NCBI GenBank assembly: GCA_964016885.1
Contig: OZ024752.1
Location: 39,990,001-40,054,000 of the forward strand
Length of the DNA: 64,000 nucleotides
Reading direction: 5' to 3'
From: Eledone cirrhosa
Lineage: Eukaryota
Shown: positions 741 through 64,000 of the stretch, piece by piece
Layout of the letters: every line of letters begins with the position of its first letter
How positions within the stretch are numbered: the first letter of the stretch is position 1
Notes under the pieces: model-generated
Database searches by the model: none
Seen by the model: only the letters and a program-made list of their open reading frames with translations
Told to the model about the DNA's origin: nothing
Position numbers and translations under genes: made by a program

Positions 741-967
741 ATCTATACATACATATATATATAGTATTAAGGATACTATTTATGGTTATGTATATACTAA
801 AACTTTTTATTGTTATATATATTTTAAACCCTAAACAGTGAAGGTCAGTAATTTATTACTACCTTATTACCAGTAAGATAAATAGCTCAATGTAATAACA
901 TCAGTTGTTCTACAGAGCAGTTATATAGAATTCACAGGAATCAAAGATATGTTCAAACCATTTATTA

Positions 968-1012
968 GCTTACAGTTGTTTCATCCAAACTGAGGTTTGG
1001 AGTCTTCAGAGC
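968..1012 (-). ncRNA. minimal type I hammerhead ribozyme
   Basis: gct-CUGAAGA-c[tccaaac ctca gtttgga]t-GAAA-CAACTG-UA-agc; position 10.1/11.1 is mismatched. Confidence 0.65.
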
Positions 1013-1300
1013 ATTTTTCAATGTTTGTACACATACGTGACCTCCTTTCCAACGCAAGAGACATACAGATACATATGTATATATTGATGCAGGAGTTTAC
1101 ACTGTTGATCAATAATTTCTCACATGTATTCTTGGATGGTATTGGTATGTTCTTGGTTGACATAGGGAGTTGGTCTTTGATCAGCATACTGGCAATTTAT
1201 TGTATGTTAGCTCAACAGTATGGAGCAGTTAATACATATGTATCTGTATGTCTCTTGCGTTGGAAAGGAGGTCACGTATGTGTACAAACATTGAAAAAAT

Positions 1301-1345
1301 GCTCAGAAGACTCCAAACCTCGGTTTGGATGAAACAATTGTAAGC
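1301..1345 (+). ncRNA. hammerhead ribozyme copy with mutated core (CAGAAGA)
   Basis: Inverted partner of 968-1012, with palindromic stem III CAATTG. Confidence 0.5.
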
Positions 1346-2287
1346 TAATAAATGGTTTGAACATATCTTTGATTCCTGTGTATTCTATATATATATATAT
1401 ATATATATATATATATATATATATGACACAACTTCGAGCGATTAGCGGCCTCTAGACTCACCTGATCAATGAAACAATTGTTAATACCTGAAATAAAGCC
1501 CGTTGTTGTACAGCCAACCATGTTACTCTTCATTCTTTCACTATATATATATTGATTGATTGATTTATTGTTGTTAGGAAGGGTATCTAGCCATAGAAAA
1601 ACAGCCAGAAACCTATATTATGAGACACGGTCACCCAACCCAACTTGCCCCTAAAAGGAACAAACCCATCTAACCCATGCTAACGTGGAAGATAGTTGTT
1701 AATCGATGTTGATGATGATGATGTATATATACCATCATCATCATTTAGCATCCATTTTTCCATGCTGGCACAGGTTAGACAGGTTGCCCATATTGGGAGA
1801 CAAATCTGGCCAGAATTGGCCATGCCCTACCTTGCTCCAATGAGAACTGTAAATTTGGCCAGGGATTTTACAACTGGATGCCCTTCCTAACTACCAACCA
1901 CATTTATAGTGTGGAACTGGATGGCACCAATATGAGGAGAGACAGGCCAGCTATATATATATATGCTTTTGGAGAACACTAAGAGAAGACTGTATCAACA
2001 AGTGCAGCCAGCATCATCCAAACATCAAATAAATGTCCTATGTGATTATTATCCACAAATGCCTCCAAAAACAATAATGTGTTTTATGTGTAACTTATAG
2101 ATATAAAGTTATACAATGCAGTTAGAAATATGCTTAACCCTTTAGCACTTAAACCAGCCATATCCAGCCAGAATTCTCTCACCTCTTTCTGCTCAAACCT
2201 GACTGGCCACTCATACTGATGTTAAGGTATTGTTCTCAAAATGAATAACATCAAAATGTCATAGATTCAATATTATGGGAGATAATT

Positions 2288-2471
2288 ACTGTATTTCCCG
2301 GCGTCGAAGATGCTTCATCTTCGAGGACTCACACTAAATTTGACAACCAAAAATCAGAAAAAAAAAATAATACACATAAAAAATGCAGCCTTTGGCCTCC
2401 AGGACGCATGGTTGATTTTTCGAGACTTATTTTAGGAAAAAAGTAGCGTCTTCGACGCCAGGAAATATGGT
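2288..2471. mobile_element. pogo/Tc2-like MITE nested in a piggyBac MITE; second copy near 45272-45441
   Basis: TIRs ctgtatttcccggcgtcgaagatgc / gcgtcttcgacgccaggaaatatgg. Confidence 0.7.
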
Positions 2472-2619
2472 CGGTGAAATAAAGCCTTCACCATGCTAAA
2501 GAGTTAAACTGTTTGTTTGTTTTTTAATATTATTTAAAATTTGTTTATCTTTGTAATGATATCCAGTTCATACTGATTGTTAATACATTAATAAATTTGT
2601 CCATGCTATCTATTTACAG

Positions 2620-61100: not shown

Positions 61101-63268
61101 CGTCCAAACCCATGCAAGCGTGGAACACGGACGTTAAACGTTGATGATGATGATGATGATGATGATATATATAATATATATATATAATATATATATATAA
61201 TATATATATATATAATATATATAATATATATACATATATCTACATATAATATATATATATATATCTACATATAATATATATATATATATCTACATATAAT
61301 ATATATATATATATCTACATATAATATATATATATATATATCTACATATAATATATATATATATATATCTACATATAATATATATATATATATATCTACA
61401 TATAATATATATATATATATATCTACATATAATATATATATATATATATCTACATATAATATATATATATATATATCTACATATAATATATATATATATA
61501 TATCTACATATAATATATATATATATATATACATATAATATATATATATATATATACATATAATATATATATATATATATACATATAATATATATATATA
61601 TATATACATATAATATATATATATATATACATATAATATATATATATATATACATATAATATATATATATATATACATATAATATATATATATATATATA
61701 TACATATAATATATATATATATATACATATAATATATATATATATATACATATAATATATATATATATATACATATAATATATATATATATACATATAAT
61801 ATATATATATATACATATAATATATATATATACACATATAATATATATATATATATACATATAATATATATATATATATACATATAATATCATCATTCAT
61901 CATCATTTCATTTTACGTCCGCTTTTCCCTGCTTGCAAGGGTGGGACGGGAACTGATGCTGGCTTGATTTCTACAGCTGGATGCCCTTCCTAACACCAAC
62001 CTCATTTACAGTGAGTGCTGGGTGCTTTTTTTTCCGTGGCACCTCCACGACCACTTTGCAGTGGAATGATAGGGACCCCAGTCCCTATCATCTCATTTCT
62101 ACAGCTGAGTAAACTGGAGCAATGTGAAATAAAGTGTCTTGCTCAAGGAAACAACACATCACCCGGTCTGAGAATTGAACTCACAACCTTTCGATTACAT
62201 ATATATAATATATACATATATATAATATATACATATATATATATATACATATAATATATATATATACATATAATATATATATATATACATATATATAATA
62301 TATACATATATATAATATATACATATAATATATATATATACATATATATACATATATATATACATATATATATACATATATATATACATATATATATACA
62401 TATATATATACATGTATATAATATATATATATATATAATATATATATATATATACATATATATATATATATATATATACATATATATATACATATATATA
62501 TAATATATATATACATATAATATATATATACATATATATAATATATATATACATATAATATATATATACATATATATAATATATATATACATATATATAA
62601 TATATATATACATATATATAATATATATACATATATATAATATATATATACATATATATAATATATATATACATATATATAATATATATACATATATATA
62701 ATATATATATACATATATATAATATATATATACATATATATAATATATATATATAATATATATATACATATATATAATATATATATATATATATACATAT
62801 ATATAATATATATATACATATATATAATATATATATACATATATATAATATATATATACATATATATATACATATACATATATATATACATATATACATA
62901 TATATACATATATATATACATATATATACATATATATATACATATATATACATAATATATATATACATATATATATACATACATACATATATACATATAT
63001 ATATACATACATATATACATATATATATATACATACATATATATATACATATATATATACATATATATATATACATATAATATATATATATATATACATA
63101 TAATATATATATATATACATATAATATATATATATATACATATAATATATATATATATACATATAATATATATATATATACATATAATATATATATATAT
63201 ACATATAATATATATATACATATAATATATATATATATACATATAATATATATATATATACATATAAT
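55170..63268. repeat. (TA)n-derived compound satellite field with inserts
   Basis: Read directly. Confidence 0.97.
55752..55951. other. assembly gap (200 N)
   Basis: N run. Confidence 1.
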
Positions 63269-63310
63269 ACGATATTAAACAAATGGAAACTATATTTATA
63301 AAACCATATT

Positions 63311-63376
63311 TATTTTATTATACATATTTCAGGGATACCATATTAAAAATATGGCATGCCTTCTTCAGATAAAATA
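63311..63376 (-). ncRNA. minimal type I hammerhead ribozyme
   Basis: tattttat-CUGAAGA-[agg c atgccatatt ttt aatatggtat c cct]-GAAA-TATGTA-UA-ataaaata. Confidence 0.72.
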
Positions 63377-63720
63377 CAATATATAAGCAGTTTTATAAAT
63401 AAATTTGACGTACCATAAAATATTTATCAACTTCCATTTAAAAAAGTTGGTTTGGTAGTGAAATGTTTGTAAATATTTAGTGTTAAGCACAGTTAGAAAG
63501 AAAGACGGAGAGAAGGAATAAATGTATGTAAAGAAAAACCGAGAGAGATATGGGAGAGAGAAATAGTGTTTTTCTTTACATACATTTATTCCTTCTCTCC
63601 TTCTTTCTTTCTAACACTAAATATTTACAAACATTTCACTACCAAACCAACTTTTTTAAATGGAAGTTGATCAATATTTTATGGTACGTCAAATTTATTT
63701 ATAAAACTGCTTATATATTG

Positions 63721-63786
63721 TATTTTATCTGAAGAAGGCATGCCATATTTTTAATATGGTATCCCTGAAATATGTATAATGAAATA
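63721..63786 (+). ncRNA. minimal type I hammerhead ribozyme (inverted partner)
   Basis: Same motif with one G.U in stem I. Confidence 0.7.
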
Positions 63787-64000
63787 AATATGGTTTTATA
63801 AATATAGTTTCCATTTGTTTAATATCGTATATCTACTCCAAAACTTGTTGAGTGTTTTATATCAGTTATAAAATATTTACTCGTAACCCAACAATTTTAA
63901 ATAAAACTTTTGTATACATATAATATATATTTATATATATACATATATAATATATATAACCTATATCACCGTTTTACGTCCGTTCTTCCACACTAGCATG

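Follow-up and report, generated by a model that had tools for sequence, protein, structure and literature searches.

How did five fold-back elements carrying hammerhead ribozyme motifs come to lie beside TA repeats within a short stretch of the genome of Eledone cirrhosa, and what are they? The window analyzed here is the whole stretch of 64,000 nt (GenBank assembly GCA_964016885.1, contig OZ024752.1, positions 39,990,001 to 40,054,000). An initial annotation, made from the sequence alone, placed the elements at 922-1391 (E1), 41638-41878 (E2), 49507-50947 (E3), 51099-53306 (E4), and 63267-63830 (E5), and all five are indeed fold-backs with inverted arms at these places. It is nearly certain that E1, E2, E4, and E5 are head-to-head pairs of 5'-truncated ends of protein-coding Penelope-like elements (PLEs) of the Hydra clade, and that E3 is a non-coding 466-bp hammerhead repeat. 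The Penelope-like origin that the annotation had suggested is thus supported, in that the longer copies of E1, E2, E4, and E5 extend into genes for reverse transcriptase (RT) and GIY-YIG endonuclease; its term "non-autonomous" fails for these four and applies to E3 alone. On balance, we also lean toward a wider reading in which a previously undescribed hairpin, repeated twice in Hydra-clade RNA, places two RTs on one RNA, one per target strand, so that each insertion would receive a short end and a tailed end. If so, the tail and the inverted layout of PLEs would have a common explanation, a telomerase-related enzyme with internal priming would have a portable start signal, and insertion anatomy would show that animal retrozymes are moved by PLE proteins.

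Hydra-clade parents and a retrozyme-like repeat

A first look at the 3.0-Gb assembly gave 3253, 568, 978, 1183, and 2210 candidate copies of E1 to E5, respectively, and most of the loci fetched are the 40 best-scoring copies per query rather than a random sample. The five elements in the window itself show no similarity to any open reading frame (ORF). In the E4 family, an intact 845-codon frame encoding RT and endonuclease lies between two E4 ends (locus L171, 2111-4645), and 110 of the best 150 of 31,781 first-look matches to the E4 RT core are 88-100% identical, many of them in frames of more than 800 codons. The parents of E1, E2, and E5 are interrupted or partial among the copies fetched. 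DKT and a CxCx5C linker occur in all four parents, together with RWR in E1, E4, and E5 and RLRW in E2; motifs of the RW(K/R) type, DKT, and CxCx5C mark the Hydra clade (Craig et al. 2021, PMC8557442; this and the other papers cited below are drawn on for the parts of them that were covered). Resemblance to the alignment rows of published Hydra proteins was judged by eye. C-terminal GIY-YIG motifs can be read in the E1, E2, E4, and E5 parents. The Pfam GIY-YIG model gives an E value of 0.007 on the E4 domain, below the cut-off, and scores above the cut-off in the homologues P0001 and P0106; Pfam yields no match to the whole L171 protein. Although 984 database proteins are related to the E4-family protein, no solved structure is related to it by sequence. 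A confident predicted model of the homologue P0040, which is 38% identical to the L171 protein, has TERT 3du5 as its top fold match (E value 8e-8), and together with the 845-codon frame this identifies the parent as a single ORF with a PLE-type RT. We find no CCHH motif; CxxC and CxH near the endonuclease end were read by eye in E4, E5, and E2. In the E4 protein, an insert rich in asparagine and glycine, with a repeat inside it, lies between the RT and the endonuclease linker; rotifer Penelope elements have been described with asparagine-rich inserts (PMC3846280).

In these respects the parents resemble the Hydra clade as described by Craig et al. (2021, PMC8557442), including Hydra-1_Obim: a single frame with RT and C-terminal GIY-YIG, RW(K/R), DKT, and CxCx5C motifs, and no CCHH. 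The likeness extends to the DNA, since that description includes inverted 5'-truncated copies with a tail often at one end, (TA)n targets, and, in every Hydra element, a type I hammerhead close to the 3' end; its supplement includes an octopus Hydra family as well as a Hydra consensus with hammerheads on both strands. The fold-back architecture of the window is therefore of an already-known kind (PMC8557442; PMC4209133; PMC3846280). Inverted copies, tails, hammerheads, and TA targeting are all published, and the elements add new members to the clade, together with a retrozyme. Published Hydra elements are generally shorter than 3 kb, a trait that the source gives as typical rather than diagnostic, whereas the units here measure 4.9 kb (E4), 4.35 kb with an inserted repeat (E1), and 3.8 kb (E2), and have long 3' untranslated regions. 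Tails here are 85-165 nt long, as against 30-40 nt published for PLEs (PMC8557442).

E3 is built from a non-coding unit of 466 bp that carries one type I hammerhead and is arrayed in tandem, up to several units at a time, and no Hydra-type ORF is joined to an E3 array in 30 loci. Judged from its sequence, E3 would fit an animal retrozyme. Animal retrozymes of the non-LTR type (LTR, long terminal repeat) are likewise non-coding tandem repeats, in which each unit measures a few hundred bases and includes one type I hammerhead (Cervera and de la Pena 2020, PMC7229834), and low GC content and dispersed young copies are further common traits (PMC7229834; Li et al. 2026, preprint 10.64898/2026.07.22.740005). 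That preprint, which also considers local tandem amplification, argues for a link between retrozymes and PLEs from distribution and the phylogeny of PLE pseudo-LTRs; in E3 the insertion signature is direct, as all 16 inverted pairs have inverted arms, one tail, and a TA target. E3 likely borrows a TA-targeting PLE protein. A search for its parent or partner among the fetched PLEs revealed no similarity, and the relatives found are about 70% identical and lack an ORF. One such relative forms a fold-back at 10541-10870, in which both arms are truncated past the hammerhead and a tail is present. Shortly past end point B (defined below), the octamer ATGCAAAT is kept in E3 (50520-50527) and in diverged relatives (L068, L122), and it is possibly a promoter element. 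It may resemble the promoters of newt satellite 2 and of small nuclear RNA genes, a likeness that a literature search did not confirm.

End points, tails, and a paired hairpin

Copies of each family end at two fixed points, a short one (A) and a tailed one (B) that lies one tail further. In the four Hydra families, A is 37-48 nt beyond the predicted hammerhead cut. Inverted pairs combine one end of each type: 97 of 110 were first scored as A+B, and 107 of 110 after ten E5 pairs scored as A+A proved on inspection to be A+B with diverged tails. When five pairs with shared flanks and two without a single covering locus are removed, exactly one arm is tailed in 100 of 103 inverted insertions, with the tail on the right in 52 and on the left in 48. 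An independent choice of start would give A+B at most half of the time. Where the query was not selective for a terminal tail, the rule holds in 64 of 65 pairs, and a Neptune/Nematis-type PLE family has one tail per inverted pair in four of four cases. That a tail may be present on one of the inverted repeats was already reported (PMC3846280).

Immediately 3' of both A and B, the E1, E2, E4, and E5 parents have R-Y-U-C, followed by a variable stem-loop, then a bulge of two bases, UU in most cases, and finally G-A-R-Y. Inserted ends stop 2-6 nt before this hairpin at six sites; at E4-A they stop 4 nt before it in three copies and 12 nt before it in 15, the greater distance arising because the reference copy has a short duplication (E2-A is left out of these distances). 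Hairpins A and B are spaced 163, 90, 92, and 91 nt apart in E1, E2, E4, and E5, and because the ends lie just before each hairpin, this spacing equals the length of the tail.

The motif was derived from eight end points of four families, and these eight are no test of it. Among 33 hammerhead clusters in the fetched loci, which include the four source families, the hairpin lies downstream in 12, upstream in one, and on the other strand in four, against a background of 7e-5 per base. Selection by TA junction and sequence boxes, without regard to pairing, recovers it in 16 of 69 junction classes, including seven of the nine most frequent; the two most frequent classes without it are E3 ends. In those 16 motifs, 31 of 32 outer pairs are Watson-Crick and 41 of 48 inner positions are paired, levels reached in none of 5000 shuffles.

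Further evidence comes from 78 Hydra-type loci from marine metagenomes, which served as an out-of-sample set. With the descriptor fixed beforehand, the hairpin is present in 42 of 52 windows upstream of the ORF (two of the 52 being mis-cut) and twice in 11, with two antisense and two in-ORF matches. With the descriptor relaxed to one inner pair, after the data had been seen, it is present in 39 of 44 non-identical regions and in two copies in 23, spaced 55-83 nt apart; controls gave no antisense and one in-ORF match, and two copies in 7 of 8800 shuffles. The first inner pair, when pairing is not required, is nevertheless paired in 55 of 57 cases (37 C-G, 17 U-A; shuffle maximum 49), and in a hand-chosen alignment of 30 rows, 97% of cells are paired and there are 42 double changes, as in none of 500 shuffles. 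The hairpin stem covaries. Of 19 metagenome contig ends, nine belong to the short class and eight to the tailed class with hairpin. In the six new Hydra consensus sequences published (PMC8557442), read by eye, the hairpin is exact in Hydra-2_Amil and Hydra-2_Ajap, exact and twice present in Hydra-1_Ajap, variant in Hydra-1_Crog, and unclear in Hydra-1_Obim; the Hydra-1_Amil consensus lacks the region. It is thus readable in three of the five that cover it.

No Rfam family covers the hairpin in the four metagenome loci scanned. The sections and supplement of PMC8557442 that were covered apparently describe neither the paired hairpins nor how strictly the one-tail rule holds. In the open full-text literature we found no count of the rule and no paired hairpin (most subscription papers, among them a 2004 study of the Penelope endonuclease and a 2006 survey of PLEs, lie outside that scope), and the covered parts of an octopus repeat annotation (PMC13282606) and of a curation guide (PMC8969392) hold nothing on either.

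A proposed route of insertion

Based on the arrangement of ends and hairpins, we think it probable that a single RNA is copied by two RTs, each assigned to one hairpin, starting at nicks in the two strands of the TA repeat. Priming on both target strands had been raised by the initial annotation, and it is supported by the outward orientation of both 3' ends and by the one-tail rule. Each hairpin is predicted to bind one copy of the protein, which would set the start a few bases upstream. Each protein copy would nick one strand of the TA repeat, and the UA-rich stretch at the start could pair with the nicked TA primer. Both enzymes would then run 5'-wards along the same RNA, through an uncut or re-joined hammerhead, and the two complementary DNAs (cDNAs) would stop at different places and be joined through short microhomology by end-joining. 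With regard to the hammerhead, 178 of 247 arms read through the 150 nt that span it and four of 247 start within 4 nt of the predicted cut; thus, the template was uncut or re-joined there. A circular template, as proposed in PMC4209133, would account for both the read-through and the copies longer than one unit.

This route has a partial parallel in the Poseidon PLE PAc of Anolis carolinensis (Frangieh et al. 2024, PMC11167929), whose protein in vitro nicks and extends both strands and begins reverse transcription internally, at two RNA sites that bound the tail, and which inserts without need for hammerhead cleavage. PAc belongs to another clade, and it differs from the elements here in having one AC-rich stem-loop, adjacent start sites, and no homology to the target. 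The text covered describes no duplicated hairpin and no pairing of A with B.

The two ends could also be produced from a single cDNA, or antisense RNA, that folds back and copies itself, the endonuclease then trimming the hairpin intermediate at staggered TA-rich sites and so leaving one arm tailed; the small hairpins would be marks for cutting rather than for starting. Self-priming has been proposed from palindromes at inverted junctions (PMC3846280) and endonuclease resolution has been proposed for the tail (PMC8557442); the junctions favor short palindromes and microhomology (arm-arm junctions in the window overlap by 1-11 nt), and the arms are near-identical within a pair. However, fixed polarity predicts that one end type is always on the longer arm, whereas among 87 pairs, from which duplicates were removed by length with over-pruning of E2, the A arm, as measured from A, exceeds the B arm in 48 and falls short of it in 19, the two are equal in 17, and three pairs are unclear. 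Since a fold-back copy must lie inside its template arm, neither polarity accounts for both classes. Moreover, the hairpin is strand-specific (antisense in 0 of 44), hairpin B is normally outside the insert, and the anole RT starts at two RNA sites bounding the tail (PMC11167929), so we hold such self-copying to be unlikely. A small but real chance remains with two separate RNAs, on which an asymmetric protein dimer would force one start at A and the other at B. This accounts equally well for the one-tail rule and for the free lengths of the arms, and a dimer is predicted for the anole protein (PMC11167929), but the two hairpins are near-identical in structure, with nothing obvious to force asymmetry on separate RNAs. 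Furthermore, in five of five families the two arms of an insertion resemble each other more closely than they resemble arms from other insertions, and they have variants in common (within/between divergence from 0.002/0.005 to 0.021/0.062), though a cis preference could produce this too.

Far less probable is the reading of all five elements as non-autonomous ribozyme retroelements in their own right. It agrees with the lack of ORF similarity in the window and is true of E3, but it is refuted for four of the five by their RT and GIY-YIG coding, and arm lengths differ copy by copy. E1 as a deleted non-autonomous unit of 470 bp was rejected because no locus fetched (L001-L221) other than the window copy has the deletion junction in the E1 spacer. 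We give practically no credence to derivation from DNA transposons in the manner of miniature inverted-repeat transposable elements (MITEs), with terminal inverted repeats and a TA target duplication. E2 did at first resemble a fixed palindrome of 216 bp in 40 places, an appearance due to query selection, and was rejected as a fixed MITE: its junctions vary per copy, its tail may be on either arm, and long copies as well as PLE parents came to light with a second query. The ends are asymmetric, arm lengths vary, and the RT-bearing parents refute a DNA-transposon origin.

Several observations weigh against the proposal that two RTs, one per hairpin, copy one RNA. Low divergence within a pair is also expected from fold-back copying, from a single source locus, or from gene conversion. 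In the anole study (PMC11167929), the parts covered report that the start site does not differ between strands and has no homology, whereas the start is UA-rich here. A looser pairing-free scan is noisy, with mixed registers: its outer pairs (25 of 38) are not above shuffles (maximum 29) and its inner pairs (41 of 57) are only just above the shuffle maximum of 39. The relaxed descriptor finds no hairpin in 5 of the 44 metagenome regions and a single one in 16. Three of the 103 pairs break the one-tail rule, one of them having a partial tail. Finally, E3 and the Neptune/Nematis-type family follow the rule without this hairpin, so the hairpin is not the sole route to it.

Hammerheads, window layout, and genomic load

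Ten full-length hammerhead motifs are present (two each in E1, E4, and E5, one in E2, and three in E3), with a partial copy in the left arm of E2. Seven match a strict type I descriptor, all within the five elements, on the minus strand in left arms and on the plus strand in right arms, as against a mean of 0.03 and a maximum of one in 100 block-wise dinucleotide shuffles; the predicted conserved core and three stems are thus present in 7 of 10. The other three carry one change each: stem III is broken in the left copy of E1, the core reads CAGAAGA in its right copy, and it reads CTGATGT in the plus-strand copy of E3. The five stem III strings (CAATTG, TGCGCA, CTAG, CAATG, and TATGTA) are as first given. 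In the E1 family the core is CCGAAGA in 24 of 30 sites, a state that neither window copy has; such a U4C core is a natural variant noted in a viroid (PMC3088659). The E3 motif alone matches an Rfam hammerhead model (HH9, 38.6 bits, under the gathering score of 52), and the scan otherwise gave many chance microRNA matches. When five motifs are folded as monomers, stem II forms, stem I mostly forms, and the loopless palindromic stem III mostly does not, and dimer-type PLE hammerheads have been described in which stem III fails to form alone (PMC4209133). Those minimal hammerheads of metazoan PLEs also have a palindromic stem III with little or no loop, a long stem II, and opposite-strand motif pairs 100-700 bp apart, as here; unlike them, the E1 family has the U4C core, and E2 and E5 open stem II with A-U.

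The annotation placed the elements correctly and drew them too short, as each is 70-165 bases longer overall, with a tail on one arm. Tails outside its limits are those of E1 (761-924), E2 (41556-41649), E4 (to 53403), and E5 (to ~63917); the E3 tail (50876-50948) was already within its range. Contrary to its view that there is no obvious shared sequence outside the ribozyme, the tails of E1, E2, E4, and E5 have the hairpin in common. The corrected features are listed in table 1. In assembled contigs of four sequencing runs over 300-1700, no empty-site joint spans E1, whose flanks are themselves repeats.

Table 1. Corrected features of the five fold-back elements (window coordinates; A and B, short and tailed end points).
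Feature	Position	Strand	Remark
E1 tail (between A and B), then TA run	761-924	-	matches bases 1-164 of parent unit in L202
E1 start-site hairpin A	885-918	-	within the E1 tail
E1 left arm, Hydra PLE 3' end with hammerhead	925-1089	-	core from 1009; stem III broken
E1 spacer, parent 5' region just past B	1082-1234	-	hairpin B (1210-1226) and ORF start
E1 right arm to A	1232-1388	+	hammerhead core at 1304 mutated; TA run 1386-1423
E2 tail	41556-41649	-	hairpin A (41614-41638)
E2 short left arm	41650-41704	-	begins within hammerhead (partial motif)
E2 right arm to A	41704-41866	+	hammerhead 41763-41833
E3 left arm, 1.7 copies of 466-bp non-coding unit, to A	49508-50307	-	hammerheads 49730-49774, 50197-50241
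E3 right arm	50304-50948	+	mutated hammerhead 50609-50653; 73-nt tail 50876-50948
TA-type microsatellite common to E3 and E4	50945-51100	.	
E4 left arm to A	51101-51657	-	hammerhead 51143-51188
E4 right arm, 1.66 kb of parent 3' untranslated region	51647-53304	+	hammerhead 53217-53262
E4 tail, then TA run	53305-53403	+	hairpin A (53314-53335)
E5 left arm to A	63267-63568	-	hammerhead 63311-63376
E5 right arm	63567-63830	+	hammerhead 63721-63786
E5 tail, then TA run	63831-63917	+	hairpin A (63835-63853); right end approximate

Further elements were noted in the window and in the fetched loci. A sixth family, at 46015-46906 (+), has a unit of about 640 bp and is represented by one arm that stops at a TA run; it has a Hydra-type hairpin at 46269, a candidate second variant some 93 nt further on, and a core resembling that of a hammerhead at 46571. 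L022 contains a tandem copy with 90% identity. The family showed no similarity to PLE proteins and is possibly a retrozyme carrying the Hydra start signal. At 41938-42080 there is a very short fold-back of another family, with arms of about 30 nt and a tail that holds a hairpin at 42022; many copies of it occur in the fetched loci. A further PLE-like end at 5740-5960 (+) has a hairpin at 5874, followed by TA. The Neptune/Nematis-type family (L244-L248) is very young, its best 150 scored matches all being 97-100% identical, many in 775-codon frames; it also targets TA and has a different short repeat (GTGTATA) after both of its end points. The window also contains tandem arrays at 31571-33356, 19538-20590, and 23179-24345, with periods of about 86, 98, and 49 bases.

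Both the TA targeting and the large genome-wide load that the annotation had supposed are supported. A TA run lies within 30 nt of 253 of 261 ends, as against 13-20% of random positions; the count leaves out 46 E5 short ends, a class that included mis-scored tails. E3, E4, and E5 are surrounded by very long degenerate TA arrays, of hundreds of bases to kilobases (47000-63266), and a single TA run often contains different PLE families placed one after the other, one having inserted into the flank of another (L017, L007, L145, L176). Genome-wide, there are 423,906 matches to the hammerhead core pattern and 92,182 to its reversal, and one hairpin pattern has 98,259 matches, as against 18,998 for its control. 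Both patterns ignore pairing, other repeats add matches, and some core matches resemble coding sequence of long interspersed nuclear elements, so that the excess of about 330,000 core matches is a loose upper estimate. The density in the window, ten motifs in 64 kb, is close to the average of the genome.

The origin of the inverted copies and one-sided tails of PLEs has been named an open question by the authors who described the Hydra clade (PMC8557442). The paired hairpins and the one-tail rule make this question experimentally small, as they offer a young family, intact frames, two short motifs, and a TA target. E3 provides structural evidence for the proposed partnership between PLEs and retrozymes, and fold-backs of this kind are easily mis-annotated as MITEs or microRNA precursors. 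Since telomerase has no closer relative than the PLE enzyme, interest in a defined start signal on RNA would reach beyond transposons.

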